Positions 3,160 through 41,296 of a stretch of 64,000 nt of DNA are shown here, one piece after another. Below the pieces are notes generated by a model. The model was given only the letters and a program-made list of their open reading frames with translations, made no database searches and was not told the origin of the DNA. Position 1 is the first letter of the stretch. Each line of letters starts with the position of its first letter. A program made the translations under genes and the position numbers. The stretch is from Candidatus Saccharimonadales bacterium (lineage in GTDB: Bacteria > Patescibacteriota > Saccharimonadia > Saccharimonadales > UBA10212). Location: contig DASTXL010000001.1 of assembly GCA_035758565.1 (NCBI GenBank), positions 203,242 through 267,241 of the forward strand, in the 5' to 3' direction.

Positions 3160-3478
3160 GTCAGTATTCTTAAAGCCGCGCTTGAGCGAGAAAGCCTATG
3201 CAACCAGCGAGGTCACCAATACTTATGTTTTTGATGTTCCAGCTGATATGAACAAGCATGCCATTGCTGACGCCGTAGCTGCTCAGTATGAAGTTACGGT
3301 TACCAATGTTCGGATTACCAATATTCCTGGTAAGGCCAAAAAGCTTTATCGTAAGCGCACCCGTGGTATTGAAACCAAGCGTAATGATGTCCGTAAGGCT
3401 TACGTAACTTTAAAGCAAGGCGATAACCTGCCATTCTTTGCCGGCAGCGAAGCTGAAGCAGGCGAGGAGGCTAAGTAA
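3152..3478 (+). CDS. rplW: 50S ribosomal protein uL23
   Basis: Position between rplD and rplB, with size and sequence typical of uL23. Confidence 0.9.
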   Translation: MSKSVFLKPRLSEKAYATSEVTNTYVFDVPADMNKHAIADAVAAQYEVTVTNVRITNIPGKAKKLYRKRTRGIETKRNDVRKAYVTLKQGDNLPFFAGSEAEAGEEAK

Positions 3479-3479
3479 T

Positions 3480-4316
3480 ATGGCTATCAAGGCTTACAAT
3501 CCAACTACTCCAGGTCGCCGTGGTATGAGCACGCAGGATTTTGATGCTATCACTACTAAAAAGCCTGTTAAGAGCTTGCTGCGCATCAAAAAATCCACTG
3601 CTGGTCGCAACAACCAAGGCCGCATCACTACTCGCCACAAGGGCGGCGGGGTTAAGAACTACTATCGTTTAGTTAACTTCAAACTACCTGTCGGTACGGA
3701 GGCTACTGTTGAGCACATTGAATACGACCCAAATCGTAGTGCCCGAATTGCCCGCGTCAAAGACCAAAATGGCGCTCTGCACTATATATTAGCCGTTCGT
3801 GGCATGCGCCCAGGTCAGAAGTTTACTGTTGCCGAAGAAACCAGCATTGAGTCTGGCAATCGTTTGCCGCTCAAGAGCATTCCAACCGGTACTGTTATCC
3901 ACGCTATCGAACTGCAACCGGGCCGTGGTGCTCAGCTGGTCCGCACCGCCGGCGCTGGTGCCCAGCTAGTTGCTAAAGAAGAAGATTACGCTCAGGTTCG
4001 CCTGCCAAGCGGTGAGGTTCGCATGATTAATGTTGAGTGCATGGCTACCATAGGTGTAATTGGTAATGAGCAGCATCAAAATATCCAAGTTGGTAAAGCC
4101 GGCCGCAACCGCTTAAAGGGTAAACGCCCAACTGTTCGCGGTGTAGTAATGAACGCCGCCGACCACCCTCACGGTGGTGGTGACGGTGGTCGTCACCGTA
4201 TGGCCCGCCCGCCCGTAACTCCGTGGGGTCAGAAGACTTTGGGCTATAAGACTCGCCGCCGAAAAGCAAGTAGCAAGTTTATTGTAAGAACACGTCATCA
4301 AGGAAAGAGGAGATAG
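3480..4316 (+). CDS. rplB: 50S ribosomal protein uL2
   Basis: Starts [15 protein letters not shown] at 3480. HPHGGGDG motif present. Confidence 0.95.
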
Positions 4317-4317
4317 T

Positions 4318-4587
4318 ATGAGCCGCTCACTGAAAAAAGGTCCATATGTTGACCCTAAACTAGCTAAGAAGATTGCCGCCCTGAACTCGGATGACCGCAC
4401 GGTCGTTAAAACCTGGGCCCGTGCCAGCACTATCTCTCCTGATTTTGTTGGTCGCACTGTTGCTGTTCATAACGGCCGTGTGCACGTACCGGTCTTCATT
4501 ACCGAAAACATGGTTGGTCACAAGCTTGGCGAATTCGCTCCAACCCGTAAGTTCCGCTCGCACGGTGGAAAGTTAGCCAAAGGTTAA
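4318..4587 (+). CDS. rpsS: 30S ribosomal protein uS19
   Basis: [11 protein letters not shown] start and [11 protein letters not shown] motif. Confidence 0.95.
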
Positions 4588-4597: not shown

Positions 4598-4984
4598 ATG
4601 CCAGTTAAAGCAATTTCAAAAGGAGTTCGCATCAGCCCGCGCAAAGTCAGCGTGGTGGCGGCGTTGGTTCGTGGCCGAACTGTTGAGGATGCCATCGTAA
4701 TTCTTGACCACACACCGCGTCGCAGCGCTAAAGCCGTTAAGGAAACCATTAAGAGCGCGGCTGCTAATGCCGAGCACAACCATAATTTTAAGCCAACTAG
4801 CTTGTTTATCTCTGAGATTTCCGTAACTCCGGGTCCACGCCTTAAGCGCTATCGCCCAGCTGCTCGTGGCCGCGCCCTGCCATTTGAGCGAAAGACCAGC
4901 CACATCCGCGTTGTTGTTGACGGAGATCAGCGTGAGATTAAAAAGACGACCACCAAAGTCACTACCGAGAAGGAGGCCAAATAA
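4598..4984 (+). CDS. rplV: 50S ribosomal protein uL22
   Basis: ISPRKVSVVAALVRG motif and operon position. Confidence 0.9.
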   Translation: MPVKAISKGVRISPRKVSVVAALVRGRTVEDAIVILDHTPRRSAKAVKETIKSAAANAEHNHNFKPTSLFISEISVTPGPRLKRYRPAARGRALPFERKTSHIRVVVDGDQREIKKTTTKVTTEKEAK

Positions 4985-5106
4985 TGAGTGAATTTGGAAG
5001 AGGGGTTCCTGTGGGAGAGGCTTTAGAATTCGATCGCACCAATGAAGGCGACAGAGCTGTTGTTAGCATCGAAAATATTGACCCACGCACTTTGGCGGCT
5101 GTTCTG

Positions 5107-5193
5107 AGGGAAAAGAAAAGCACCGGTTCGCCGGATGGCGAATCTGGATTTATTCCAGAAGGTGCGATAGGAAAAACCGTAGGTTTGTCCTAT
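5107..5193 (+). repeat. Structured intergenic repeat, copy 1 (three-way variant), rplV|rpsC junction
   Basis: AGGGAAAAGAAAAGC box. CACC...GGTG closes two sub-hairpins (GGTTCGCC/GGCGAATC and TGGA/TCCA). Followed by GCGAT and hairpin ATAGGAaAAACC-gta-GGTTTgTCCTAT. Confidence 0.8.
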
Positions 5194-5216
5194 GAACGAC
5201 CGGAGGGAGTGTAGTT

Positions 5217-5846
5217 ATGGGCCAAAAAGTAAATCCAATCAGCATGCGTTTACAAGTCAACAAAGATTGGCGCTCTAAGTGGTTTGCCGGCAAGCGCGAA
5301 TACGCCAACTACCTCAAGCAGGATTTGGCTGCCCGCAAGCTCATTGCCGACAAACTTGGTTCTCGCGCCGCTGTATCTAAGGTTGATATCGAACGCTCGC
5401 CAAACCTAGTCACCGTAACTATCCAGACTGCTAAGGCCGGTGTTGTTATTGGCCGTGGCGGTTCCGGCGCCGCTGAACTCAAAGAGGCTATCGAAAAACT
5501 TTATGGTGTTCCGACCCGCGTAAACATCGAAGAGATTAAGCGCCCTGAGCTGCAGGCCAAGCTGGTTGCCGAAAATATTGCCCACCAGCTAGAACGCCGT
5601 ATTGCCTTCCGCCGCGCCATGAAAATGGCCGCTGCCGGCAGTATGCGTGCTGGCGCTAAGGGCATTCGCATAGAAGTTTCCGGTCGCCTAGGCGGTATGG
5701 AAATGAGCCGTCGCGAAAAAATTACTGAAGGCTCTGTGCCTCTGCACACGCTTCGCGCTGACATTGACTACGCTGCTGCCCGCGCTCTTTACCCGGGTGC
5801 CGGCATCATTGGTGTTAAAGTTTGGATCTACCGAGGGGAGACCTAA
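5217..5846 (+). CDS. rpsC: 30S ribosomal protein uS3
   Basis: MGQKVNP start, KH-domain sequence and operon position. Confidence 0.95.
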   Translation: MGQKVNPISMRLQVNKDWRSKWFAGKREYANYLKQDLAARKLIADKLGSRAAVSKVDIERSPNLVTVTIQTAKAGVVIGRGGSGAAELKEAIEKLYGVPTRVNIEEIKRPELQAKLVAENIAHQLERRIAFRRAMKMAAAGSMRAGAKGIRIEVSGRLGGMEMSRREKITEGSVPLHTLRADIDYAAARALYPGAGIIGVKVWIYRGET

Positions 5847-5849
5847 GCC

Positions 5850-6266
5850 ATGTTAATGCCATCCCGAACTAAGTACCGCAAAGTGCGCAAAGGCAAGATC
5901 CACGGCGGCAAAGCTACCGCCCTATCTACTATTGCCTACGGCCGCTACGGACTGGTTAGCCAAGACAAGGAACGCATTAATAGCCGCCAGATCGAGGCTG
6001 CCCGCCAGGCTATGACCCGTTACGTTAAACGTGGCGGTCAGATCTGGATCCGTATTTTCCCGCACACCCCAGTTACCCGTAAGCCACAAGACGTGAAGAT
6101 GGGTAGCGGCAAAGGTAATCCAGAATTTTTTGTTGCCAAGGTTAAGCCAGGGACCATCATGTTTGAGATGGACGGCGTGCCAGAAGAAGTAGCTCGCGAA
6201 GCTATGCGCCTTGCTGGTCACAAACTACCTGTTAAGACCAAGTTTTTAGTTAAGGAGGAGGCGTAA
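5850..6266 (+). CDS. rplP: 50S ribosomal protein uL16
   Basis: [11 protein letters not shown] start and KMGSGKG motif. Confidence 0.95.
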
Positions 6267-6283
6267 TGGTTTCTTTTGCTAAA

Positions 6284-6357
6284 AGGGAAAAGATAGCCCA
6301 GGCAAAAACCACGCTTTTTGCCTGGCGCGATAAGAAAAACCGCAGGTTTGTCTTATC
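6284..6357 (+). repeat. Structured intergenic repeat, copy 2, rplP|rpmC junction
   Basis: AGGGAAAAGATAGC box; hairpin CCAGGCAAAAA/TTTTTGCCTGG; CGCGAT linker; hairpin ATAAGAaAAACC-gca-GGTTTgTCTTAT. Confidence 0.8.
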
Positions 6358-6380
6358 TGAAGTTAAGGAGGAGGCATAAG

Positions 6381-6581
6381 ATGAAAATTGCTGAAATCCG
6401 CAAGCTAAAAACAGAGGAACTGACCAAGCAAAGCAACTCATTGCGTGAAGAAATTGCCGAATTAAAGCGCCGGCTATATAGCGGCGAAGTATCTAACACC
6501 CGTGTTATCCGCTCTAAGCGCAAAGATTTAGCCCGAGTATTAACAGTTTTACAAGAACAACTAACCAAGGAGGCCCAATAA
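6381..6581 (+). CDS. rpmC: 50S ribosomal protein uL29
   Basis: The ATG at 6381 follows an AAGGAGGAGG SD. Sequence MKIAEIRKLKTEEL... is typical of uL29. Confidence 0.9.
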   Translation: MKIAEIRKLKTEELTKQSNSLREEIAELKRRLYSGEVSNTRVIRSKRKDLARVLTVLQEQLTKEAQ

Positions 6582-6599
6582 ATGACCTCTTCCATTTTT

Positions 6600-6671
6600 A
6601 GGGAAAAGACAGCCCGACAAAATGTATTCCATTTTGCCGGCGCGATAGGAAAAACCGTAGGTTTGTCCTAT
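6600..6671 (+). repeat. Structured intergenic repeat, copy 3, rpmC|rpsQ junction
   Basis: Identical over 72 nt to copy 7. Hairpins are CCGaCAAAATG/CATTTTGcCGG and ATAGGAaAAACC-gta-GGTTTgTCCTAT. Confidence 0.85.
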
Positions 6672-6694
6672 GAACGACCGGAGGGAGTGTAGAT

Positions 6695-7000
6695 ATGGCC
6701 CGTTCAATTACCGGCACTGTGACTAGCGATAAAGGCGACAAGACTATCGTCATTACTATGCGCGTCCGCAAAACCCACCCCCTATATAAGAAGCAGTACA
6801 CAGTCGATACCAAATTTATGGCCCATGACGAAAAGAACGAGGCTAAAGTTGGCGATCTAGTCATGATCACCGAATGCCGCCCTTTGAGCGCCCGCAAACG
6901 CTTCCAGTTGACCAAAGTGTTGGAGCGCGGCGGGGTTCGCTTTGAAGAATCTGACGCTACAGCTGATATCCCGCAAGAAGAGAAAGAAGGAGAAGCTTAA
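6695..7000 (+). CDS. rpsQ: 30S ribosomal protein uS17
   Basis: GTVTSDKGDKTIVI motif and operon position. Carries an acidic C-terminal tail. Confidence 0.9.
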   Translation: MARSITGTVTSDKGDKTIVITMRVRKTHPLYKKQYTVDTKFMAHDEKNEAKVGDLVMITECRPLSARKRFQLTKVLERGGVRFEESDATADIPQEEKEGEA

Positions 7001-7372
7001 ATGATTCAGCAAGAATCCCGCCTGCTTGTTGCCGATAACAGTGGCGCCCGCTCACTTCTTTGCATTCGTGTTCTAGGCGGTTCGCGCCGCCGATACGCCC
7101 GCGTTGGCGACATTATTGTTGCTAGCGTCAAAACCGCTAACCCAGCTGGCGGCGTAAAGCGCAAGAGCATCGTTAAGGCGGTAGTAGTGCGTACTCGTAA
7201 TCCGATTCGCCGCGCTGATGGCAGCACTATTCGCTTTGATGACAACGCCGCTGTAGTACTCGCCGAGGATGGCAAGAGTCCACGTGGTACCCGTATCTTT
7301 GGCCCGGTTCCACGCGAACTGCGCGAGCAAGGTTACAGCCGAATTATTTCACTAGCTCCGGAGGTACTGTAA
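7001..7372 (+). CDS. rplN: 50S ribosomal protein uL14
   Basis: [16 protein letters not shown] start. Confidence 0.95.
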
Positions 7373-7701
7373 TGGATAAGATCTTTAAGATCCGGCTAAA
7401 AAAAGGCGATACTGTTATGGTTCGCTCAGGTAAATATAAGGGTAAAACCGGTAAAATCACGGCCGTTCATCCCAGAGAAAACAAAGTAACAGTCGAAGGC
7501 ATCAATGTGGTTAAGCGCCACCGCAAACCCACTCAACTTCGGCCTCAAGGCGGTATTTTTGAGATTACAAAGCCGATTGACGTTAGTAAGGTTGGAGTTT
7601 TGGACTCAGTAGCCAAAAAGCCTTCGCGAATTGGCTTTAAGATCGACAAAGATGGCAAAAAAGTTCGTGTTTTAAAGACCAGCGGAAAGGAGATTAAGTA
7701 A
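7372..7701 (+). CDS. rplX: 50S ribosomal protein uL24
   Basis: KOW motif (KKGDTVMVRSGKYKGKTGKI) and operon position. Confidence 0.9.
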   Translation: MDKIFKIRLKKGDTVMVRSGKYKGKTGKITAVHPRENKVTVEGINVVKRHRKPTQLRPQGGIFEITKPIDVSKVGVLDSVAKKPSRIGFKIDKDGKKVRVLKTSGKEIK

Positions 7702-8366
7702 TGGCTACGTCTCCTGATGTAAGGAAAAAGAGCAGCCCGAGCGGCGATTCACTCGACGCCCGGCGCGATGAGAAAAAACCATCGGTTTTGTCTCATAAGG
7801 CCGAAGGCCGCAGTTACGAATCTCGCTTGAAAGTGGCCTACAACACTAAATTCGCTCGTGAACTCAAAGACGAGCTTAAGCTAGATAACATCAACCAGGT
7901 TCCAAAGTTAGAGAAGATTACAATTAACGTTGGCCTGGGTCGTGCCAAAGACGATAAACGCTTGCTGGAAGTTGCTGCCAATACTATCCGCAAAATTACT
8001 GGTCAGCAACCAATCGAAACTGTGGCCAAACAGTCAATCGCAACCTTTAAGCTGCGCGAAGGTAACAAAATCGGTATGAAGGTTACCTTACGCGGCGACC
8101 GTATGTACGATTTTGCCGATCGCTTGATCAACATTGTTCTCCCACGTCTGCGCGACTTTCACGGCACTAGCAACCGGGCTTTTGACCGCCAAGGCAACTA
8201 CAGTATTGGCCTAACCGACCAGTCGGTCTTCCCCGAACTTAGTTACGAAGATACAGCTACCGCTCACGGGCTTCAGGTAGTGTTTACTATCCGGACCCAA
8301 GAGCCAGATCACGCTAAAGCACTGCTGAAGAAATTCGGCATGCCATTTGAGAAGGAGAATTCCTAA
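7701..8366 (+). CDS. rplE: 50S ribosomal protein uL5 with an N-terminal extension encoded by repeat copy 4
   Basis: The conserved uL5 core starts near RLKVAYNTKF...QVPKLEKITINVGLG. The only ATG is at 7701, overlapping the rplX stop. In-frame TTG 7827 and GTG 7833 lack a well-placed SD. Confidence 0.85.
   Translation: MATSPDVRKKSSPSGDSLDARRDEKKPSVLSHKAEGRSYESRLKVAYNTKFARELKDELKLDNINQVPKLEKITINVGLGRAKDDKRLLEVAANTIRKITGQQPIETVAKQSIATFKLREGNKIGMKVTLRGDRMYDFADRLINIVLPRLRDFHGTSNRAFDRQGNYSIGLTDQSVFPELSYEDTATAHGLQVVFTIRTQEPDHAKALLKKFGMPFEKENS
7722..7796 (+). repeat. Structured intergenic repeat, copy 4, inside the 5' end of the rplE ORF
   Basis: AGGAAAAAGAGCAGC box; imperfect hairpin CCGAGCGGCGA/TCGACGCCCGG; CGCGAT linker; hairpin ATGAGAaAAAACC-atc-GGTTTTgTCTCAT. 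Confidence 0.7.
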
Positions 8367-8382
8367 AATGTTGAATTTAGTA

Positions 8383-8455
8383 ATGGAAAAGAGCAGCCAG
8401 AGTTTGGATTCACTCCAAACCCTGCGCGATGAGAAAAACCGCAGGTCTGTCTCAT
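8383..8455 (+). repeat. Structured intergenic repeat, copy 5, rplE|rpsN junction
   Basis: TGGAAAAGAGCAGC box; hairpin CAGaGTTTGGA/TCCAAACcCTG; CGCGAT linker; hairpin ATGAGAaAAACC-gca-GGTcTgTCTCAT. Confidence 0.8.
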
Positions 8456-8477
8456 GCTCTGATAAGGAGGATAAATA

Positions 8478-8747
8478 ATGGCCAAGAAATCAATCCTCGC
8501 GCGTGATGCGAAACGAGACAAAATGATCGCTAAATACGCCGCTAAGCGCGCCGAACTCAAAGCAGTCGGTGATTACGAAGGCCTAGCCAAATTGCCTCGC
8601 AATTCTAGCCCGACCCGTCACACTAACCGCTGCGCCGAGACAGGCCGCCCACGCGGATTTATGCGTCAGTTTGGTTTATCTCGCATTGCTTTCCGCGAGC
8701 ACGCCAGCCGGGGCGAAGTTCCAGGCGTAACAAAGAGTAGTTGGTAA
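8478..8747 (+). CDS. rpsN: 30S ribosomal protein uS14 (long, non-zinc form)
   Basis: [13 protein letters not shown] start, [18 protein letters not shown] motif and a ...KSSW end. Confidence 0.95.
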
Positions 8748-8774
8748 GAATATATGAGTACATTCCATTTAATA

Positions 8775-8861
8775 AGGGAAAAGAGTAGCACCGGTCCGGC
8801 AATTGCCGGATTTGGATTCATTCCAAAAGGTGCGTTGAGGAAAACCGTAGGTTGTCCTCAA
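8775..8861 (+). repeat. Structured intergenic repeat, copy 6 (three-way variant), rpsN|rpsH junction
   Basis: AGGGAAAAGAGTAGC box. CACC...GGTG closes TCCGGC/GCCGGA and TTGGA/TCCAA. Followed by hairpin TTGAGGAaAACC-gta-GGTTgTCCTCAA. Confidence 0.8.
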
Positions 8862-8878
8862 AAGCCGGAGGCGCAAAT

Positions 8879-9283
8879 ATGAAGCAAATAGTAAATACAG
8901 ATCCAATCGCAGATATGCTCACTCGTATCCGCAACGGCATTGCCGTCGGCAAGAGTGAGGTCAGGATGCCGCATTCTAAGGTCAAAGAGACCGTTGCCAA
9001 GATTTTGGCCGATAACGGTTTTCTTTCGAGTGTCAAAGCTTCAGAAGAAGGCGGTCGCAAAGTTCTGACTGTTGTGATTACCGGCAGCGACGAACCGGCT
9101 AAGATTACCGAAATTTCCCGCATTAGCCGCCCGGGTCGCCGTGTTTATGTTAAGGCCGCCGATATTCCATCGGTTAAGCGCGGCCGGGGTATTGTAGTTG
9201 TTTCAACTTCCCACGGTGTTATGAGCGGTAAAGAAGCCGTCAATCAACACCTTGGCGGAGAATTAATCTGTCAGGTTTATTAA
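8879..9283 (+). CDS. rpsH: 30S ribosomal protein uS8
   Basis: Start at the ATG at 8879. DPIADMLTRIRNG motif. Confidence 0.95.
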   Translation: MKQIVNTDPIADMLTRIRNGIAVGKSEVRMPHSKVKETVAKILADNGFLSSVKASEEGGRKVLTVVITGSDEPAKITEISRISRPGRRVYVKAADIPSVKRGRGIVVVSTSHGVMSGKEAVNQHLGGELICQVY

Positions 9284-9293
9284 GGAGTAAATA

Positions 9294-9830
9294 ATGAGTC
9301 GAATAGGAAAACTACCGATTTCAGTTCCATCCGGTGTGACAATCACTGTCGACGACGACTTTGTGAGCGTTAACGGCCCCAAAGGCAGTTTGAAGCAATT
9401 CACTATGCCGGGCGTTAAGGTTGCTGCAACTGGCGATCAAGTGTTGGTTACCCGCGAAAATGATGAGCGAGCTAACCGTGCCCGTCACGGACTAATGCGC
9501 TCATTGGTTGCTAATATGGTTCAGGGCGTCAGCCAAGGGTTTGAAAAGAAGCTAGAGCTAAACGGCGTAGGCTACCGCGTGCAAACGCAAGGTGCCGATC
9601 TCAAATTTAACCTCGGCTTTTCTCATGACGTTGTCTATAAAGTGCCGGCGGGTGTTAATGTGACTGTCGAGCAGAACGTCATCACCGTTAGCGGTATTGA
9701 TAAGCAACAGGTTGGCCAAGTGGCCGCCGAAATCCGAGCGCTTAAGAAGCCAGAGCCATACAAGGGCAAAGGTATCAAATATGTCGATGAGCGCATTATC
9801 CGTAAATCAGGTAAGAGCGGTAAGGAATAA
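9294..9830 (+). CDS. rplF: 50S ribosomal protein uL6
   Basis: MSRIGKLPI start and operon position. Confidence 0.95.
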
Positions 9831-9831
9831 G

Positions 9832-10185
9832 ATGAATAACTTAAAGCACAAACAAATGATGAGTGAGCGCCGAGCTAACCGTGTCCGCGCTAAGGTTTCT
9901 GGCACTTCTGAGCGCCCGCGCTTGGCTGTCAGCATTAGCAACCTGCACGTTACGGCCCAAATCATCGACGATACAACCAGCAAAACTTTGGCCTACGCGA
10001 CAACCGTCGGACAAAAACTAACTGGCACAATGACCGAAAAGGCTGCCGTTATTGGCGAACAGATTGCTAAAAAAGCCGCCAAAGCCAAGGTGAGTAAAGT
10101 TGTTTTAGATCGCTCAAGCCGTAAATATCACGGCCGCGTCAAGGCTTTAGCTGACGCCGCGCGCAAGTCAGGATTGGAGTTTTAA
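9832..10185 (+). CDS. rplR: 50S ribosomal protein uL18
   Basis: The ATG at 9832 follows a [28 protein letters not shown] motif. Confidence 0.9.
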
Positions 10186-10186
10186 T

Positions 10187-10741
10187 ATGGCCGAAAATCA
10201 GCAAAATCAACCACAACGTCGCAATCCACGAGCCCAAGCTGTCGAAGAAAAGCAGTTCGACGAGCGCGTCGTTTACGTTAACCGCGTTGCGCGTGTCGTT
10301 AAAGGAGGCCGTCGTTTTCGCTTCCAAGCTTTAGTCGTAATTGGCGACCACAAAGGTCAAGTCGGTATCGGTGTTAGTAAGGGTGCCGACGTTCAGGCTG
10401 CCGTTACCAAAGCTACGGATGTGGCCAAAAAACATCTAACGAGAATCCCGATGCACAACGCGACTCTTACCCATGAAGTCCAGGCTAAAGTTGGTGGTTC
10501 CAAGATTTTGATTATGCCGGCTGCACCAGGTACTGGTTTGATCGCCGGTGGTGTTGTGCGTATTGTTCTAGAGGTTGCCGGTATCGAAAACGCTCTCTCT
10601 AAGTCGCTAGGCTCTTCTAACCGCATCAATACGGCTTACGCCACGCTAGCTGCGTTATCTCAGATGGAGCCAGCTGACAAATGGGTTCCGAACCAGACGA
10701 GTAAGCCAGCTTCAAAAGCTAAAGCAAAGGCGGAGGCTTAA
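10187..10741 (+). CDS. rpsE: 30S ribosomal protein uS5
   Basis: VNRVARVVKGGRRFRF motif and operon position. Confidence 0.95.
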   Translation: MAENQQNQPQRRNPRAQAVEEKQFDERVVYVNRVARVVKGGRRFRFQALVVIGDHKGQVGIGVSKGADVQAAVTKATDVAKKHLTRIPMHNATLTHEVQAKVGGSKILIMPAAPGTGLIAGGVVRIVLEVAGIENALSKSLGSSNRINTAYATLAALSQMEPADKWVPNQTSKPASKAKAKAEA

Positions 10742-10744
10742 ACT

Positions 10745-11212
10745 ATGAAATTTAATGAACTTACAGTATCTAAGCAGACTAAGCCAACTCGCGTTGGACG
10801 CGGTATTAGTGCCGGTCGCGGCAAGACTGCCGGTCGCGGCACCAAAGGCCAGGGTTCGCGTAAAAGCTCCGGCCGAGCCGGATTCGAGGGCGGTCAGATG
10901 CCGATTTATATGCGCCTGCCTAAACTTCGCGGCTTTAAGAGCCACCGGGTGGCCGCCGAAAATGTTTACACCGGTCAGCTGAACGACGTTAAGGGCGTCA
11001 CTGTTGATCCAACCTCGCTAGCCGAAGCCGGATTGATTAGCAGCCCCTACGTCAACGTGAAGCTGGTTGTTAAGGGCGAGTTAACCGCTAAAAAGACAGT
11101 TAAGCTGCAATCTGCCAGCAAATCAGCCGTTGAGACGGTCGAAAAAGCCGGTGGCAAATTTGAGCGCATTGACCGCCTGGCGCGAACTAAAAAAGCCAGC
11201 GAATCAAAATAA
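10745..11212 (+). CDS. rplO: 50S ribosomal protein uL15
   Basis: RVGRGISAGRGKTAGRGTKGQ motif. It follows rpsE directly, with no L30 gene between them. Confidence 0.95.
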   Translation: MKFNELTVSKQTKPTRVGRGISAGRGKTAGRGTKGQGSRKSSGRAGFEGGQMPIYMRLPKLRGFKSHRVAAENVYTGQLNDVKGVTVDPTSLAEAGLISSPYVNVKLVVKGELTAKKTVKLQSASKSAVETVEKAGGKFERIDRLARTKKASESK

Positions 11213-11232
11213 AGCAACTCTCTGTTTAAAAA

Positions 11233-11267
11233 ACGTCCGTTAAAGTGTTACGCTAGCGGACGTTTTT
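11233..11267 (+). terminator. Rho-independent terminator/attenuator after rplO
   Basis: ACGTCCG...CGGACGT stem followed by TTTTT, with an A-run upstream. Confidence 0.55.
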
Positions 11268-11284
11268 CTGTATAATTATTACGA

Positions 11285-12817
11285 ATGAACTGGGGCATAA
11301 TTTTAAAGTCTCTTGGCCACAAAGAGATGCGAAACCGCATTTTGGCGGTGCTTGGCATGCTGCTTGTTTTTCGAATCTTAGCTCACGTTCCAGTTCCTCT
11401 AGCCGACCCGCACACTTTAAAGCAGGTCCTCAATAACCTCTTTACGCAGACAAATTCCAACCAACTTCTCGGGTTTCTTAATGTTCTTTCTGGCGGCGCG
11501 CTAGCTAACTTCTCGATCATGCTAGTGGGCTTGGGCCCTTACATTAACGCCAGCATTATTATGCAGCTGCTCACCAAAGCTATTCCAAAATTGGAAGCTA
11601 TGAACAAAGAGGGAGAGTACGGCCGCAAAAAGATTAACCAGTACACCCGCATGCTTACATTTCCGCTGGCCATCGTTCAGTCAATCGGCACCATTTATTT
11701 AATCCGCCAAGAGGCCTCAAGCATTGGTGGTTTGGGCGATATCACGGCCAATACTTCATTTTTGCAGTGGGCTTTAATGATCGCCACACTCACCGGCGGC
11801 TCTATGGTATTGATGTGGCTGGGTGAACTTATTACCGAACGTTCTATCGGCAACGGTATTAGCTTGCTGATTACCGTGGGCATTGTTAGTCGCCTGCCGA
11901 CCCTATTTACCGAGCTTTGGAGTGGAGCCTACTGGGTTAAGGGCACTAACGCGGCCAATGATAAATTTATGCTGTTCCATCGCAATTTTTCTAAGCACGG
12001 CATGATTATTTTTTGGATAATCATGCTGGCCATTATTGCCATCACGTGGGCGGTGGTGAAGCTTAATGAAGCCAGCCGTAAACTTACGGTTAATTATGCT
12101 AAACGCGTGCAAGGCAATCGTACTTATGGTGGCGTAACCACTACTTTGCCGGTCAAACTTATTACGGCCGGTGTTATTCCAATTATCTTTGCCGTGGCCT
12201 TTCTTTCCGTGCCCAATTTCTTGGGCCAGTTGCTAACGCACGGGCAGGGAGTGAATCTGGCTAATCCAGTAGGCACTTGGCAGCATTTGGGCGTTAATTT
12301 GTCTACCTGGTTTCAGAGTCCTAGCCAGCTAACCTTTGCTACCGAGGGTTGGAAGGCCTGGATTTACCCGGTGACCTACTTCTTATTAGTGTTTATCTTT
12401 ACTTACTTCTATACCAGCGTAACGTTTAACTCTAAAGAGATTGCCGAGAACTTGCAAAAACAAGGCGGCTTTATCGCCGATGTCCGTTCTGGCAAGCAAA
12501 CCGAAAGGTATTTGTCTAAGGTAGTTAATCGCCTAACTTTGTTTGGTGCGCTAGCACTTGGTTTTTTGGCGATTTTGCCGATTGTCGCCCAAGTTAAGCT
12601 GAATGAGAACATTGCCATTGGCGGCACTAGCATTTTGATCTTGGTTTCCGTTTCGCTTGAAACCTTACGCCAAGTAGAATCACGCGCTTTGATGATTACT
12701 TACGATCAGTATGAGCAACCCGACTATTTTTACGAAGCTCCAGGAGTAGAGGGCGCTCCATCTAGCCGCACGGCTATTCTCTCGCGCCTGCCGCTGGTTG
12801 GCCGCCGCAAAAAATAG
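11285..12817 (+). CDS. secY: Preprotein translocase subunit SecY (long form, 510 aa)
   Basis: Multi-TM protein with LNVLSGGALANFSI, GISLLI and GGTSILI motifs. It sits after rplO. A TATAAT box lies 8 nt upstream of the ATG. Confidence 0.9.
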   Translation: MNWGIILKSLGHKEMRNRILAVLGMLLVFRILAHVPVPLADPHTLKQVLNNLFTQTNSNQLLGFLNVLSGGALANFSIMLVGLGPYINASIIMQLLTKAIPKLEAMNKEGEYGRKKINQYTRMLTFPLAIVQSIGTIYLIRQEASSIGGLGDITANTSFLQWALMIATLTGGSMVLMWLGELITERSIGNGISLLITVGIVSRLPTLFTELWSGAYWVKGTNAANDKFMLFHRNFSKHGMIIFWIIMLAIIAITWAVVKLNEASRKLTVNYAKRVQGNRTYGGVTTTLPVKLITAGVIPIIFAVAFLSVPNFLGQLLTHGQGVNLANPVGTWQHLGVNLSTWFQSPSQLTFATEGWKAWIYPVTYFLLVFIFTYFYTSVTFNSKEIAENLQKQGGFIADVRSGKQTERYLSKVVNRLTLFGALALGFLAILPIVAQVKLNENIAIGGTSILILVSVSLETLRQVESRALMITYDQYEQPDYFYEAPGVEGAPSSRTAILSRLPLVGRRKK

Positions 12818-12818
12818 C

Positions 12819-14135
12819 CTACTTTATTTTTGAACAATCAACGTCACCGCCAACTGGTAGCGGGCGTCCAGTTACACCAGCGTAATAACGGACTAGTCGT
12901 TCACCTAGATCTGATCCAGGATATGGTTGATCGTATAATCGGGCTAGCAAAAATTCTGTTTTGGCGCGGATAACCGGACGAGCAGGATCTAGTAGGTCTG
13001 GAAAATTACCGTTTGGCAAGGACATCATCCCGCCGAGAGCTTCCTTGTCGTCGGCAACGCTGGCAAATCCATCTGTATCGGCTACCACTTCTTTGCTTTC
13101 TTCAGCGGCGAAACCTTCTTGCACTCGACAATATTCTTTATAGTCTTTCTTTTCGTATGCTTTGAGACCCTTCTGGCCGTTCTTTATATCCGACGGTCGG
13201 CGGTATATATCGATTGAATTTAAAATGGTCAGTCCTTTATGATTGCCGGAGCCATAGATGTTTTTATGCGGGTTCAGAGCGACGTAGCCGGGGTCATTAT
13301 CGGCGGTAGTGTAGCACTCTTCGTTATCTAACCCATCGTAAAGCGCCTTGTCGATTTCGTCTGCGCTTCCATCACCGCTTATATCCCAATAAAGAGTGCC
13401 TGGACCGTAATAATAGTCGAAGGCATAGGCAGAGCTCTTCATAAGGATGATCTTTTTAAGTCCGCTCAGCTGTACGTATTCCGCAGGGATATTCCGAAGA
13501 CCTCGCGTAATTCTAGACAAGCTGGCCAAAGCCTCATCCTGAACGTCTAATTTGGTTGGGCTCTCGAAGTCATCAACCTGCTTTTTAGATCCAATCTGCA
13601 ACGATATGCCGTACTTACCCAGATATTCGCGCACAGCTTGTAAGTCTTCGTTAATCGAAGGTAAGATTTGGTCTGTGACGCCGAAATTTTTCTTATCCCA
13701 TTTTGCCCAAGCGGGCGTAACACCTTCTTGGGAGTTAAATGCAATGTCCTCTATGGCCGGCGACTGCTCAACGAATGTTAAATGATATTTTTTGGCGGCG
13801 ACTTTTTCTTGCCAGCTGGGATCGCTTAGAGTTTTGTCCACGTAGGCTTGGGTCGGGACAGGTAGTTTATTGGCATCGAACATGCCGCCAAATAGCTTAT
13901 CAACTGCTTTTGTCGCTTTGGCGGATGGCGCCGGACAACTCGTGGCAGGCATTAATGAGCTTTTGTTTTCATGTTTAGCAATTAAAAATAGCGACAACGC
14001 GGCGGTACCAATCGCTCCCCACTGAACCAGCCGTGTTTTGCGCCATCTAAAATCTGGATGATTAATAATGTCGCTAATAGTTTGAGAGCCGCGTGAGTCG
14101 GCACCTTCGGATTCATTAGGTGGCTTTTCTGACAT
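12819..14135 (-). CDS. Hypothetical membrane-anchored/secreted protein
   Basis: 438-aa ORF with one N-terminal TM helix (WGAIGTAALSLFLIA). No family recognised. Confidence 0.5.
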   Translation of the reverse strand: MSEKPPNESEGADSRGSQTISDIINHPDFRWRKTRLVQWGAIGTAALSLFLIAKHENKSSLMPATSCPAPSAKATKAVDKLFGGMFDANKLPVPTQAYVDKTLSDPSWQEKVAAKKYHLTFVEQSPAIEDIAFNSQEGVTPAWAKWDKKNFGVTDQILPSINEDLQAVREYLGKYGISLQIGSKKQVDDFESPTKLDVQDEALASLSRITRGLRNIPAEYVQLSGLKKIILMKSSAYAFDYYYGPGTLYWDISGDGSADEIDKALYDGLDNEECYTTADNDPGYVALNPHKNIYGSGNHKGLTILNSIDIYRRPSDIKNGQKGLKAYEKKDYKEYCRVQEGFAAEESKEVVADTDGFASVADDKEALGGMMSLPNGNFPDLLDPARPVIRAKTEFLLARLYDQPYPGSDLGERLVRYYAGVTGRPLPVGGDVDCSKIK

Positions 14136-14282
14136 TTTATAACTATACCATCTTTTTGAATTTTTTAAATAATTAATCGACTGTAGCTTTCTAAGCGTAA
14201 GCGTTTGCCATAATACCCTCAGTAAAAGGATAATCAGGCCACGAGCTTTAACGAGGCTTTAGAGAAGAAACGTCTAAAGGAA

Positions 14283-14822
14283 ATGCCGCGCGAGGATCTT
14301 TTGGCGGCAGTTGATGACACTATTGAACTCCATGGCGAATACCTTCGGCTTTACGACTATTACGAGAATACCGACGGCACGCTAAATTATTGGGCCGGTC
14401 ATGTTGCCGCTAGGGATGTGGCGCACTATGTTTTGACCGGCGAAAACGAACACATTGCTTGGATTGATTATTTAATCGCCGAAGGATTGGCCGAAAGTAG
14501 GCAAAACTGGCAAGATTGGGCGCGACCGCACCCGCATTCAGTTTATGAAAGGGCTATTCACGATTTTTCTAGATCAGAACATTCTTTGAATAGCACGTAT
14601 TTTCTGATGAGTTCTATGGCCGCAGCCTTAAGGCGCTTAAGGAATCAAACTGGCTGGATTGAGCGAGATGGTGATTACGGCTGGCGCTTAACACCCTCTG
14701 GCATAGCCGTGGCCGATGCTCTTGCCGAGGACATGGTTGAAGAAATCGGCCAAAAGTCACAGATTACTTTCAAGAACACGCAGTATAATCTCCTTGAACT
14801 AAATAAAGGAGGCACGCTATGA
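14283..14822 (+). CDS. Hypothetical protein
   Basis: 179-aa ORF with an AAAGGAA SD. Its end overlaps the next gene by 4 nt. Confidence 0.45.
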   Translation: MPREDLLAAVDDTIELHGEYLRLYDYYENTDGTLNYWAGHVAARDVAHYVLTGENEHIAWIDYLIAEGLAESRQNWQDWARPHPHSVYERAIHDFSRSEHSLNSTYFLMSSMAAALRRLRNQTGWIERDGDYGWRLTPSGIAVADALAEDMVEEIGQKSQITFKNTQYNLLELNKGGTL

Positions 14823-15238
14823 ATCCAGTTGTTCATTTCGAAATGGGATATTTCGATCGAGATCGGATGAAAGAGTTTTACCAGACGGCTTTTGGCTGGA
14901 AGTTGCAGCAATACGGTGAAGATATGGGTAATTATGTAGTAGCCCAAACGGCTGAAACCGACGAAGACGGCATGGTCAAAACTCCTGGCGCTATTAACGG
15001 CGGTTTTTATGCCAAAAGCGACAGTCCAGATTCGCATGCGCCATCAGTAGTTATATCTGTTAAAGATATTAATAAAGCTATCGAGGATGTTAAGTCTGCC
15101 GGCGGCAAAATCAAAGGTGGCATGACTCCAGAAGGCGAACACACCATGGAGCCGACGATGATTCCGGGTGTTGGTCTTTGGATTTCTTTCGAAGACACCG
15201 AGGGCAACCGCGTAAGCCTTATGCAGCCAAAACGGTAA
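14819..15238 (+). CDS. VOC/glyoxalase-bleomycin-resistance family protein
   Basis: MNPVVHFEM start followed by AFGW, and a C-terminal FEDTEGNRVSLMQP, both typical of VOC-fold proteins. Confidence 0.55.
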   Translation: MNPVVHFEMGYFDRDRMKEFYQTAFGWKLQQYGEDMGNYVVAQTAETDEDGMVKTPGAINGGFYAKSDSPDSHAPSVVISVKDINKAIEDVKSAGGKIKGGMTPEGEHTMEPTMIPGVGLWISFEDTEGNRVSLMQPKR

Positions 15239-15300
15239 AGTTCAATTATCATTTGCTCTCCGGTCATTGAATTTTTAGTAAATAGTGGTACGGTTGGGCT

Positions 15301-15678
15301 ATGGCACACAATGAATATCCGTCAGAAATACCGCAGTATTATTTTTCTGAAGATATAGAAGTGCCAGTAGCGACCGTCTATTTACCTCAAGAGTCCGATT
15401 TATATAGCGAACCTGCTGTTAGACCAGTCGTTCTGGGCCACATCGCGAATGACGAGATAGAAAGATTAGTGCTGGACTTTGAGCATGTTGAGTATATAGA
15501 CTCCACGTTTTTGGGCATGTTCGTTGGGGCCGCTAAGCGAGTTAGGGCAGCTCAACGCCGAACAATCAAAGAGTTAATTTTACAGGGCCCGGCTGCCAAT
15601 AAGTCCATTCCAAAAATATTTGAGGTCACCGGACTTGACCGAGTCTTTAAGATGGAGGGCTTCAAGGGTCGTGTATAG
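15301..15678 (+). CDS. STAS-domain protein (anti-sigma-factor antagonist-like)
   Basis: VEYIDSTFLGMFVGA and FEVTGLDRVF resemble the SpoIIAA/STAS signature. Confidence 0.5.
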   Translation: MAHNEYPSEIPQYYFSEDIEVPVATVYLPQESDLYSEPAVRPVVLGHIANDEIERLVLDFEHVEYIDSTFLGMFVGAAKRVRAAQRRTIKELILQGPAANKSIPKIFEVTGLDRVFKMEGFKGRV

Positions 15679-15748
15679 AATTCTTGGCCAAGCCCGCATA
15701 TAAAGCTTGTGCTTGCGTTTAAAGGATTCTGGTGGAAGAATTACTCAG

Positions 15749-16045
15749 ATGAGCGAGCACATGTCAGAAAATGAGAAATTTATCTTAAGCATTCCCGAAT
15801 CGGTTACTTACACTGCCGATGGCAGGCGGATAGTCGAAGGCGTGGGTTATGCTAGCCCAGGTTTGAGCGAGGGTGAAACTCGAGAGATGCTGGCCAATGG
15901 CTATGGGTTTGATCCAGATTCGATAGAAATAACTGGGTTACAGGAAGCCACAGCATCCAGGGGACGCCGCTTGAGTGTCGGTTTTAGACGGTGGAATTCC
16001 AGCTGGGACCCTGATGCGACCCGCCAAAACGCCAGCCTGAATTAA
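15749..16045 (+). CDS. Hypothetical protein
   Basis: ORF trimmed to the ATG at 15749, downstream of GGTGGAAG. No motif recognised. Confidence 0.35.
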   Translation: MSEHMSENEKFILSIPESVTYTADGRRIVEGVGYASPGLSEGETREMLANGYGFDPDSIEITGLQEATASRGRRLSVGFRRWNSSWDPDATRQNASLN

Positions 16046-16102
16046 TTTATCAAAACCCTTTACAACTCCTTACCGCTCTGGTATATTGAACAGGTTGTAT
16101 TT

Positions 16103-16324
16103 ATGGCCAAAGACAAGGAAGTAATCGAACTCGCCGGAACGGTAGTCGAAGCATTACCAGGAACGCAGTTTCGTGTCGAGCTTGAAAACGGCCATCAAAT
16201 CATAGCTCACGTTGCAGGGAGGATGCGGAAACATTATATCCGTTTAGTCCCAGGCGACCGCGTTAAGGTAGAATTGACACCTTACGATCTGACGAAGGGT
16301 CGGATAACTTACCGCGAGAATTAA
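16103..16324 (+). CDS. infA: Translation initiation factor IF-1
   Basis: [31 protein letters not shown]...KGRITYR is typical of IF-1. Confidence 0.95.
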
Positions 16325-16377
16325 TAAATTAGTTCTATAAGAGCAGTGTGTCACCCAGGATAAGGAGGATGATCCGC

Positions 16378-16494
16378 ATGAAAGTGCGTGCCAGCGTAAA
16401 GAAAATCAGTCCAGATGATAAAATCGTCCGCCGTAAAGGACGAGTTTACATTATTAATAAATTAAAGCCTAAGCACAAGCAGAGGCAAGGTTAA
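16378..16494 (+). CDS. rpmJ: 50S ribosomal protein bL36
   Basis: 38-aa ORF absent from the ORF track: [38 protein letters not shown]. It follows a TAAGGAGG SD and lies between infA and rpsM. Confidence 0.9.
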
Positions 16495-16497
16495 TAT

Positions 16498-16884
16498 ATG
16501 GCAAGAATTTCTGGTGTAACTATTCCAGATAATAAGCAGGTGTTAGTAAGTCTGACCTATGTTTATGGTGTCGGTCCTAAATTCGCCAGCGAAATTTTAG
16601 ATAAGGCTAAGATTGAGCCAACTGTCCGCGTAAAAGACCTGACGGATGCGGAAATTGGCCGCATTCAGGATGTTATTAACGCTGATTACATTATTGAAGG
16701 TGAGCTGCAGCGGATTATTACTGGTAATATCAAGCGTTTGCGAGACATCAAAGCCTACCGAGGCGAGCGTCACGCTCGTAACCTGCCAAGTCGAGGGCAG
16801 CGCACCAGAACTAACGCCCGCACTCGCCGCGGCAAGAAAATGACCGTTGGCGGCACAGCTAAGAAAGCCCCGAGCAAGACCTAA
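16498..16884 (+). CDS. rpsM: 30S ribosomal protein uS13
   Basis: MARISGVTIP start and operon position. Confidence 0.95.
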   Translation: MARISGVTIPDNKQVLVSLTYVYGVGPKFASEILDKAKIEPTVRVKDLTDAEIGRIQDVINADYIIEGELQRIITGNIKRLRDIKAYRGERHARNLPSRGQRTRTNARTRRGKKMTVGGTAKKAPSKT

Positions 16885-16892
16885 GGATTAGT

Positions 16893-17372
16893 ATGGCAGA
16901 CGAAATTACACAAGAAAAGGCCAAGCAAACAACTCCAGAGCAGCCAGAAGTTACCACTCAGGCCGCCGAACAGCCAGAGGCAACTGCAGCCGCTCCCAGT
17001 CGCCGTCGTAAGGCTAAACGTACAGTTAGCGCGGCGCACATCCACGTTTTGGCAACTTTTAATAACACCATCGTTACCGTGACTGATGACAAGGGTAATA
17101 CCCTGACTACCGCTAGCGCTGGCGCTTCTGGTTTTCGCGGATCCAAGAAGGGTACAGCCTATGCCGCTCAAGTAGCCGCCGAGAAGGCCATTGGTGATGC
17201 CAAGAGCGCTTACGGAGTAACTAAGGCCGACGTATTTGTAAAAGGTGTTGGCTTGGGCCGCGACGCAGCCGTTCGTTCGTTGATCAACCAAAAGATTACC
17301 GTCGAGAGCGTTCGTGACGTAACCGGCGTACCACACGGTGGCGTACGTCCAAGAAAGCCGAAGAGGAACTAA
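16893..17372 (+). CDS. rpsK: 30S ribosomal protein uS11 with an N-terminal low-complexity extension
   Basis: HIHVLATFNNTIVTVTD and GFRGSKKGT motifs. About 40 aa of Q/E/A/T-rich sequence lie at the N-terminus. Confidence 0.9.
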   Translation: MADEITQEKAKQTTPEQPEVTTQAAEQPEATAAAPSRRRKAKRTVSAAHIHVLATFNNTIVTVTDDKGNTLTTASAGASGFRGSKKGTAYAAQVAAEKAIGDAKSAYGVTKADVFVKGVGLGRDAAVRSLINQKITVESVRDVTGVPHGGVRPRKPKRN

Positions 17373-17395
17373 AAATGATGTATTTGCAGCTAAAT

Positions 17396-17467
17396 AGGGA
17401 AAAGACAGCCCGACAAAATGTATTCCATTTTGCCGGCGCGATAGGAAAAACCGTAGGTTTGTCCTAT
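17396..17467 (+). repeat. Structured intergenic repeat, copy 7, rpsK|rpsD junction
   Basis: Its 72 nt are identical to copy 3 (6600-6671). Confidence 0.85.
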
Positions 17468-17486
17468 AAGGACGGAGTCCGCTAAG

Positions 17487-33046: not shown

Positions 33047-33103
33047 TTAACTAACGTGGGAGGCGCTAAGAAACGCCGCATGCACCACGAAAGGAGAGTA
33101 ACC

Positions 33104-34497: not shown

Positions 34498-34563
34498 TTT
34501 ACAACCTTAAAAAATATTATCCTGCATATGTTAACTGGTATTATGGAGGCAAAGGAGGCATTC

Positions 34564-40838: not shown

Positions 40839-40855
40839 GCACCCGCAGAAAATCA

Positions 40856-40893
40856 GGCGGAGCGGACCCAAAAAATCCCCAGTTTGTTATAAT
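40856..40893 (+). promoter_or_regulatory. Island cassette repeat R2
   Basis: GGCGGAGCGGACCCAAAAAATCCCCAGTTTGTTATAAT. Six nt separate the -10 box from the ATG at 40900. Confidence 0.65.
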
Positions 40894-40899
40894 TCATTC

Positions 40900-41145: not shown

Positions 41146-41158
41146 GACTGTAGTGATT

Positions 41159-41287: not shown

Positions 41288-41296
41288 CGGCTAACT

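Follow-up and report, generated by a model that had tools for sequence, protein, structure and literature searches.

A structured RNA cassette has recently entered seven stop/start junctions of the S10/spc/alpha ribosomal protein operon in a 64,000-nucleotide (nt) stretch of DNA from Candidatus Saccharimonadales bacterium (contig DASTXL010000001.1, positions 203,242 to 267,241 of the forward strand; hereafter, the window). Six of these copies lie in small open reading frames (ORFs) that lead from the stop codon of one gene to the start codon of the next. The geometry of these bridging ORFs, their recurrence in other genomes, and their excess over chance are established by the comparisons described below. 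To account for them, we propose, with a probability of about 0.7, that only inserts offering an open frame from upstream stop to downstream start would persist, the encoded peptide being irrelevant; we refer to such frames as relay ORFs. The repeat is a large, strongly covarying structured RNA family of Saccharibacteria without a match in Rfam. Few known gene arrays are as conserved and compact as ribosomal protein operons, and repeated colonization of such operons by structured repeats in ultra-small genomes was unexpected.

Bridging ORFs at stop/start junctions

The window carries the S10/spc/alpha operon of a Saccharibacterium. The identities of the ORFs for L22, S3, L16, L29, S17, L5, S14, S8, S11, and S4 were confirmed with Pfam, the nearest related loci belong to Candidatus Saccharimonadales/Saccharibacteria metagenome-assembled genomes, and NCBI lists the L5 of the window under such a Saccharimonadales genome (loci of the comparison set carry three-digit designations, such as L170). 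The repeat is an RNA cassette of ~72 to 90 nt, present in eight copies (c1 to c8), all on the plus strand, as are the ORFs described with them. From its 5′ end, it consists of a single-stranded stretch, AGGGAAAAGAGCAGC(C); a hairpin of variable sequence and length, P1, which forms a three-way junction in c1, c6, and c8; a GCGCG linker; a conserved 12-bp hairpin, P2 (AUGAGAAAAACC-GYA-GGUUUGUCUCAU); and, often, a small hairpin, P3 (GGC-GAA-GCC, GCC-CUUG-GGC, or GCC-GGA-GGC).

An earlier note on this DNA had listed six small ORFs around the operon copies, with overlapping stop and start codons at several ends. All six are present in the ORF list and in the sequence, and the overlaps read as described (TAATG at the rplV and rplP stops and at the rpsN start; ATATGA at the rpsH start). 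Each ORF starts −1 to +6 nt from the upstream stop, with its Shine-Dalgarno (SD) sequence inside the end of the upstream gene. Each stop codon begins no more than 5 nt upstream or 1 nt downstream of the first base of the next ATG, so that the 3′ ends are TAATG or ATGA overlaps or gaps of 1 to 2 nt.

We number the ORFs after the copies they carry. ORF 1 (76 amino acids [aa]; 4984 to 5214), between rplV and rpsC, begins with an ATG that overlaps the rplV stop and ends with a TAG 2 nt short of the rpsC ATG. Its 230-nt stretch is insertion throughout and consists of a unique 123-nt filler (4984 to 5106), for which neither blastn nor tblastn against all loci of the comparison set found a homolog, followed by the long-form copy c1 (5107 to 5193; covariance model [CM] score, 48 to 53 bits), in which the three-way-junction P1 precedes P2 (predicted fold, −39 kcal/mol; z = −2.85). 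ORF 2 (37 aa; 6266 to 6379), between rplP and rpmC, carries the short-form copy c2 (6284 to 6356; 72 to 83 bits). Its ATG, part of a TAATG at the rplP stop, arises at the insertion boundary (TAA/TG), and its stop is a duplicate of the rplP stop codon, 1 nt ahead of the rpmC ATG; this ORF is kept in the orthologous copies of L176 and L177. ORF 3 (36 aa; 6582 to 6692), taken from the ORF list, joins rpmC to rpsQ and carries the short-form copy c3 (6600 to 6671; 85 to 97 bits), which is 100% identical to c7 and brings its own SD flank, GAACGACCGGAGGGAGTGTAG, on the 3′ side; the same flank stands behind c1 and behind the rpsQ-rplN copy of L171. ORF 5 (36 aa; 8368 to 8478), between rplE and rpsN, contains the short-form copy c5 (8383 to 8455; 87 to 93 bits), and its stop overlaps the rpsN ATG. 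ORF 6 (42 aa; 8754 to 8882) runs from rpsN into the overlap at the rpsH start and contains the long-form copy c6 (8775 to 8861; 35 to 48 bits). The fold predicted for c6 (−39.5 kcal/mol; z = −4.08) includes a P3 (GCC GGA GGC; 8864 to 8872) containing the rpsH SD. ORF 7 (36 aa; 17375 to 17485), also from the ORF list, bridges rpsK and rpsD with the short-form copy c7 (17396 to 17467; 86 to 99 bits), whose predicted P3 (GGAC GGA GUCC; 17470 to 17480) contains the rpsD SD.

The two remaining copies have no bridging ORF. c4 (7721 to 7796; 82 to 84 bits) lies, as the earlier note had it, in frame within rplE, in the N-terminal tail of L5; the rplE ORF (7701 to 8366) starts in a TAATG overlap with rplX, and the P3 of c4 (GGCC GAA GGCC) occupies 7799 to 7809. 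The copy outside the operon, c8 (49463 to 49552; 21 to 25 bits), is a diverged long form in an intergenic region directly 3′ of an intrinsic-terminator-like hairpin. It lies in no ORF, having no ATG and a stop at the fourth codon (AGG GAA AGG TAG).

The copies had been said to be read in two different frames. This holds at P2, where two frames are used because P1 differs in length among copies; the third P2 frame is nearly always stopped (GCGCGA-UGA/UAG/UAA). It does not hold at the conserved 5′ end, where a single frame is used by all copies (AGG GAA AAG, read as R/M-E-K; hereafter, the R-E-K frame).

We compared the window with its close relatives L170 (L5, 87% identical) and L171 (L5, 82 to 87% identical, depending on the region). 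In both, the gene pairs rplV-rpsC, rplP-rpmC, rpmC-rpsQ, rplE-rpsN, and rpsN-rpsH lie 0 to 4 nt apart or overlap: the rplV-rpsC site is empty with 0 to 1 nt between the genes, and the empty rpmC-rpsQ site reads TAATGG, an overlap. The rpsK and rpsD genes are 2 nt apart in L172 and L175. Since the relatives' sites are empty, c1, c2, c3, c5, and c6 are recent insertions and not, as the earlier note implied, old spacers that had been kept; openness in the window is therefore due at least partly to the survival of some insertions and not of others.

Several insertions are flanked by target duplications. For c2, the duplication is 19 nt long (AGTTAAGGAGGAGGC(G/A)TAA), present once in the empty site of L170 and twice around c2: the left copy, AGTTAAGGAGGAGGCGTAA (6248 to 6266), is the end of rplP including its SD and stop codon, and the right copy, AGTTAAGGAGGAGGCATAA (6361 to 6379), provides the rpmC SD and the stop of ORF 2. 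A diverged 18-nt duplication flanks c5 (8349 to 8366 and 8461 to 8478), as judged from filled and empty sites; its right copy, GATAAGGAGGATAAATAA, nearly equals the empty site of L171, GAGAAGGAGGATAAATAG. The duplication at c6 is 6 nt (ATATGA) and includes the rpsH start, and those at c1 and c3 are 3 nt or less. Across filled versus empty or flanking comparisons, duplication lengths were 3, 6, 18, 19, 21, 27, 28, 37, and 43 nt; flanking direct repeats of 21 to 43 nt occur in L083, L063, L103, L080, and L111 (null 99.9th percentile, 11), and the duplicated sequence often takes in the SD and stop codon. The inserted unit has no fixed edges, beginning 8 to 23 nt ahead of AGGG and ending either 4 nt past P2 or past P3, and insertion positions differ from genome to genome. 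With its variable edges, duplications, and shifting positions, the cassette looks like a mobile element. No mobilization enzyme or transposase-like gene was found among the ten window ORFs scanned with Pfam, which was not a systematic search. Elsewhere, a reverse transcriptase gene (RVT_1; 358 aa; L175:3376-4452) lies between rpsJ and rplC and may be relevant to the spread of structured repeats.

The earlier note had called for comparison with other genomes. Copies at tight ribosomal protein junctions (21 copies: in the window, L013, L059, L063, L083, L089, L097, L103, and L170 to L172, plus the fusions in L003 and L018) were compared with 83 copies elsewhere. The R-E-K frame was open in all 21 of the former and in 46/83 of the latter (Fisher p = 2.5e-5), and an ATG-started spanning ORF was present in 20/21 versus 9/83 (p = 1.5e-13). 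Bridging ORFs occur at every tight ribosomal protein junction with an element in L013, L059, L063, L083, L089, L103, L171, and L172.

We then took a census of 672 ribosomal protein junctions in 35 Saccharibacteria loci, 489 of which are 10 nt or shorter. A spacer of at least 45 nt was counted as bridged if an ORF started −4 to +12 nt from the upstream stop and ended −12 to +15 nt from the downstream start. Among true long ribosomal protein spacers, ~29 were bridged and 2 were not (5.4 bridged expected from shuffles of the spacer interiors), and among the natural spacers rplO-secY and secY-infA, 1/39 was bridged. A sense frame was open in 31/33 long spacers, usually exactly one, and an antisense frame was open in 17/33. 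The frame set by the ATG was open in 94% of spacers, compared with 8 to 19% for other frames and strands, and in all non-fused cases the stop fell −5 to +11 nt from the next ATG.

Bridging extends to inserts other than the cassette. In L059, a second, unrelated repeat of ~115 nt occupies eight junctions, all of them bridged by ORFs that run from an ATGA or TAATG start to a stop overlapping the next ATG. It consists of a small hairpin at the 5′ end (UAAAAUG...CAUUUUA), a long and very stable one (GGAGUGCGAAGUG...CUCCGCACUUC; −40 to −51 kcal/mol), and its own SD, GAAAGGAGC; the seven listed copies lie at 413 to 527, 3084 to 3198, 3613 to 3730, 4407 to 4521, 6432 to 6555, 7606 to 7722, and 8080 to 8198. 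This locus has 10 long bridged spacers, nine of them with one of the two repeat families. Bridged inserts of unique sequence, 108 to 325 nt long, occur in L172 (rplB-rpsS and rplR-rpsE), L020 (rplB-rpsS), L021 (rplV-rpsC), and L059 (rplE-rpsN and rpsH-rplF). Two further copies of the cassette are antisense, one in the 5′ end of what is likely an msrA gene (GCFWG motif; L080) and one inside another gene (L111). Their duplications (37 and 43 nt) preserve the original start, from which an ORF passes through the antisense element to an ATGA overlap with the real start. Because the unrelated repeat, the unique inserts, and the antisense copies are bridged as well, the element itself is not the cause of bridging.

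The unique open stretches (window 4984 to 5106; L013:5750-5956; L172:3403-3678 and 6741-6989; L059:5837-6161 and 6958-7065) may be genuine small genes or else relay ORFs across unrecognized inserts. For the L013 extension and the two unique ORFs of L172, blastn and tblastn against all comparison loci found no homologs; the L059 rpsH-rplF peptide resembles a membrane peptide (MKSALLQIPFTIVGLSLAALLGYVINVMYKK...).

A structured RNA family in transcripts of several kinds

A covariance model built from the window copies found copies in four further Saccharibacteria genome loci. Metagenome contigs were then scanned for exact matches to the P2 core, which gave at least 120 stretches; 80 of these were taken as loci and contained ~90 full copies, and family counts rest on the loci taken. 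In total, metagenome and genome loci contain >100 copies of the family. A second covariance model, run on 28 Saccharibacteria operon loci, found no further, more diverged copies, and Rfam cmscan returned no relevant match for the window at gathering thresholds or for positions 4900 to 9000 at E values up to 10. Individual copies fold better than shuffled sequences (z from −2 to −4). In an alignment of 96 copies, 98.4% of cells were base paired (81% in shuffles and 42 to 56% with slid partners) and compensatory double changes occurred at 18/23 pairs, figures somewhat inflated by the fitting of the alignment to the model.

Variant architectures support a modular build, as is typical of functional RNAs. 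In some copies GC-GAA-GC takes the place of P1, and a hairpin with the UUYAY-type loop of P1 stands upstream of the 5′ motif. Mini-forms of 47 to 48 nt are built in this way, with the hairpin (GAAUUYACUUC-type loop) upstream of the AGGGAAAAG motif, and resemble a permutation of domain order (L105:2436-2491, L071:93-148, L124:10527-10582, L129:464-519, L067:5365-5420, L073:555-610 and 729-784, and L093:702-757).

Members of the family are placed immediately 5′ of tRNA 5′ ends, 5S rRNA, and start codons and also at tolerant sites of 23S rRNA, oriented with the host transcript in nearly all scorable cases. Seventeen copies stand immediately 5′ of a tRNA gene and on its strand, with the end of P2 4 to 11 nt ahead of the mature 5′ end and a sigma-70-like promoter (TTGAC.../...TAAT) 45 to 60 nt further upstream. 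Copies linked to rRNA, oriented with it, are found ~10 nt ahead of 5S rRNA, in the spacer between 16S and 23S rRNA, and within 23S rRNA (L056:1228-1311, 2599-2684, 3419-3502, and 3551-3631; L066:3698-3791; L109:444-527, 1193-1275, and 2790-2873; L119:6633-6712, 7587-7667, and 8195-8276). Two of these, L056:2599-2684 and L066:3698-3791, interrupt the stem at position ~583 of the large-subunit rRNA model, which we take to be helix 25 by reference to the Escherichia coli 23S rRNA; at least two other 23S rRNA sites also hold copies, and the window copies are outside rRNA. The family is uncatalogued, strongly constrained, and common to tRNA leaders, rRNA, and mRNAs.

In mRNA leaders, copies precede rplK, nusG, rpsR (after ssb), and dnaK. 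At looser junctions (ssb-rpsR, nusG-rplK, secE-nusG, and downstream of a gene for a 677-aa protein), an SD lies upstream of the element with no ATG, and copies drift between open and closed lengths (74, 74, and 76 nt at ssb-rpsR; 76, 76, and 74 nt at the junction of the 677-aa gene). Outside the tight junctions, the R-E-K frame was closed in 37/83 copies (45%); the common 74-nt length class terminates in ...PAR*. Because the frame is often closed and an ATG usually lacking there, the element itself is not coding. Leader-type copies (L069, L084, and L060 at ssb-rpsR; L068 upstream of nusG; L110 and L095 at nusG-rplK; L058 in the dnaK leader) have an SD-like GAAAGGAG 5 to 25 nt upstream of the element, and often no SD is visible from P3 to the start codon ~100 nt further on. 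By its fold, the leader element might bring this SD close to the AUG, the two acting as a split ribosome-binding site.

Once in place, copies are under constraint. Between the window and L170, the 75-nt core of c4 shows no differences, compared with 19.7% of nucleotides and 41.8% of third positions in the rest of rplE (P ~ 5e-8), and changes in its P3 are confined to the loop. The L170 homolog (P0002) is the only one to retain the element; other close L5 homologs are without it. Likewise, c2 differs from its L176 counterpart at 3/73 nt, mostly in loops, whereas rplP differs at 18.5% of nucleotides. Judged from these alignments, neutral decay of selfish DNA does not explain the frozen copies, which would imply a role at the RNA (or DNA) level or a cost of partly decayed copies. 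We consider a role at the RNA level probable for the element itself; a conserved processing or binding factor might recognize it, for example.

Three more specific roles were considered and set aside. An internal promoter with the 5′ AGGGA as discriminator was dropped, since the tRNA-leader promoters lie 45 to 60 nt upstream and a consensus scan found no promoter excess. BoxA-type antitermination was suggested by UGCUCUUUU, a sequence in the antisense of the 5′ motif that resembles boxA; seen from the rRNA and tRNA genes, it lies on the wrong strand. An intrinsic terminator was discarded because P1 and P2 showed no sense-strand terminator-like site, only antisense matches. On the minus strand of the window, antisense P1 followed by GCUGCUCUUUUCCCU scores as terminator-like at 6298 to 6325, 6614 to 6640, 7737 to 7756, and 8398 to 8424; this stretch also resembles the start of the rrn boxA (UGCUCUUU).

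What, then, is the cassette? One tentative reading is that it is an undescribed, Saccharibacteria-specific RNA element that either serves as a universal punctuation or processing signal, recognized by a lineage-specific RNase or RNA-binding protein, or spreads by RNA-mediated insertion (template switching or a retro-type process). Its host orientation, its landing at 5′ boundaries, the 3- to 43-nt duplications, and the variable edge filler fit this reading, under which host operons would accommodate the insert by evolving relay ORFs. Full-text literature searches found no earlier description of the element or of coupling relayed by ORFs across inserted repeats. The nearest prior report is a survey of rRNA genes in CPR bacteria, in which 64/66 rRNA insertions of Saccharibacteria were short (250 bp or less), lacked intron or homing-endonuclease features, and were left uncharacterized (PMC11270868).

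Three known classes of element offer partial parallels. The palindromic elements of Rickettsia (RPEs) are likewise short structured repeats of a reduced genome that have entered essential and RNA genes with the frame kept open (PMC10969869). Going by their descriptions, RPEs encode one conserved peptide, in one frame, inside ORFs. The Saccharibacteria element mostly lies in separate relay ORFs at stop/start junctions, is read in two frames at P2, also stands 5′ of tRNAs and 5S rRNA, and shows strong covariation and in-place constraint; the two P2 frames, the antisense reading in L080 and L111, and the 45% of other copies that are closed do not agree with a single peptide. In-frame fusions do occur: c4 in L5 (also in L170), a copy at the S17 C terminus in L018, and a copy at the S10 N terminus in L003. 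Gene callers may list relay ORFs as hypothetical proteins or lengthen proteins such as L5, S17, and S10 by element-encoded tails.

Repeats of the MITE kind (miniature inverted-repeat transposable elements; Correia/CREE, ERIC, BOX, and REP) are also noncoding, multicopy, insertion-polymorphic, cotranscribed, and hairpin forming, and some, as targets of RNase III or RNase E, change what becomes of the mRNA (PMC10969869). The Saccharibacteria family shares their dispersed copies (>100) and insertion polymorphism (empty sites in L170 and L171). It lacks terminal inverted repeats, its ends (AGGGAAAAG... and ...GUCUCAU) being noncomplementary and its fold comprising two to four separate hairpins, and its duplications are not of fixed length (3 to 43 nt). 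It further differs in its orientation with the host transcript, its exact placement a few nt 5′ of tRNAs, 5S rRNA, and start codons, and its modular variants (P1 absent, branched, or moved upstream). Finally, the intervening sequences of 23S rRNA (helix 25 and helix 45) resemble the family members in 23S rRNA, including those in the stem read as helix 25, but classical intervening sequences are confined to 23S rRNA and excised by RNase III, whereas this family is also found in mRNAs and tRNA leaders.

The relay ORF model and its alternatives

How might an open frame come to be required? At junctions that overlap or are ≤10 nt apart, the upstream SD and the ATG at the stop codon could not be lost, and ribosomes finishing the upstream gene would be expected to initiate at that remaining ATG. 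Inserts would then survive only if this start opened a frame through the structured insert that ended near the start of the downstream gene. The relay ORF would restore the short stop-to-start distance needed for coupling by reinitiation, and passage of the ribosome would melt P2 and P3, which in some copies hide the downstream SD, and would maintain translation of the spacer. The frame at P2 would be whichever of the two stop-free frames the length of P1 sets. Coupling is known to drop when stop/start spacing grows by <20 nt, and models based on unfolding and on reinitiation are both established (PMC12548453). Relay ORFs show the −1/−4 or few-nt geometry of ordinary stop/start coupling (TAATG, ATGA) at both ends; the difference is that a dispensable intermediate cistron of inserted repeat DNA spans ~110 to 325 nt. 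The earlier note's suggestion that an open frame, and not a specific peptide, is selected in connection with translational coupling is supported by recurrence in other genomes and by the antisense and unrelated inserts. Relay ORFs may be regarded as a natural experiment that displays the geometry kept by selection: initiation at the upstream stop and termination at the downstream start, with any peptide between them. This suggests that coupling, or continuous translation, is strongly selected in these operons, of which the one in the window is colonized at up to seven junctions.

Several observations weigh against this model. Two long spacers, both rpsH-rplF (L017 and L063), are unbridged. All tight-junction copies share one 5′ frame despite a second open frame, for which the model has no explanation. 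Each downstream gene has its own SD, so that coupling is perhaps not essential, and leader-type copies (ssb-rpsR, nusG-rplK, and dnaK) precede translated genes with no upstream ORF, so that the fold alone does not block initiation. Most window copies are young, and their openness is thus a matter of survivorship and not of long maintenance. The counts given above come from copies that share ancestry within one family, which puts the effective sample below them, and from a tight-junction class defined after inspection of the data. Translation of the bridging ORFs is itself a prediction from sequence.

A related possibility, which we hold open at well short of even odds, is that the open frame keeps ribosomes on ~110 nt of structured spacer as a shield against Rho-type polarity or RNase, with no part for reinitiation. 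Its expected sequence features are those of the relay model, untranslated RNA is well known to be subject to polarity (PMC12548453), and the downstream SDs mean that reinitiation is not strictly needed. The stops, however, fall within approximately −5 to +11 nt of the next ATG, which reinitiation needs and mere coverage does not, and untranslated copies of the leader, tRNA, and rRNA types are tolerated. Shielding and coupling cannot be separated here.

It is improbable that the bridging ORFs are a passive by-product of an overlapping start that cannot be removed, an element poor in stops in two of three frames, and A/T-rich SD-to-ATG spacers that often contain stops. Two of the three P2 frames are indeed open, and two frames are open in most copies; 17/33 spacers have a fully open antisense strand; shuffles give 13 to 28% bridging per ~115-nt spacer; and the majority of window copies are recent. 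Yet ~29/31 spacers are bridged where ~5.4 would be expected, and openness is specific to the frame set by the ATG (94% versus 8 to 19%). Unique inserts of 232 to 325 nt are fully open, each with a shuffle probability of ≤0.02, and orthologous junction copies that lack an ATG shift between lengths that leave the frame open and lengths that close it, which tight-junction copies never do.

We give little credence to a cis-regulatory site for ribosomal protein autoregulation or an intercistronic terminator or attenuator. The element is structured, lies beside SDs, and has 7/8 of its window copies in a ribosomal protein operon, but it matches no Rfam leader, its positions are nonorthologous between genomes with empty sites in close relatives, the same element occurs 5′ of tRNAs and 5S rRNA and within 23S rRNA, and no sense-strand U-tract follows the hairpins, terminator-like matches being antisense only.

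Least credible are functional micropeptides of one or two families, the earlier note's other proposal: a good SD and ATG, recurring motifs (REK...GAIGKTVGLSY and REK...RDEKNRRFV), and the calling of one ORF as a gene (in a database look-up of the six peptides, that of c2 alone, in three assemblies) speak for them, but the motifs are translations of RNA-constrained nucleotides, the peptide varies where P1 covaries, P2 is read in two frames and the antisense strand is used twice (L080 and L111), other family members have in-frame stops (37/83) or lack an ATG-started ORF (74/83; 89%), the frozen synonymous sites of c4 point to selection on RNA rather than on protein, and unrelated inserts behave alike.

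Other features of the window

On the minus strand, a 438-aa ORF without a Pfam match (12819 to 14135) lies directly after secY, in the middle of the ribosomal protein/adk/infA region. Upstream of the ORF at 48266 to 48790, an L10 leader (Rfam RF00557; 48094 to 48218) reaches the gathering score and represents a conventional ribosomal protein leader.

Several housekeeping proteins of the window are unusually long, with start codons as called (33056 to 34015, 34261 to 36198, and 36922 to 38838). L1 has an N-terminal extension of ~130 aa with Lys/Glu-rich repeats, ThyX has ~400 additional N-terminal residues, and in a 638-aa protein the thymidylate kinase domain is at the N terminus only.

A 132-nt duplication (41426 to 41557 and 43473 to 43604) is 83% identical between its copies. 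The motif CGGGGCGGACCCAAAAAATCCCAG, in some cases followed by TTTGATATAGT, occurs in six copies across 40849 to 45281 at a spacing of 0.5 to 2 kb and may serve a gene cluster as a common promoter or regulatory motif.

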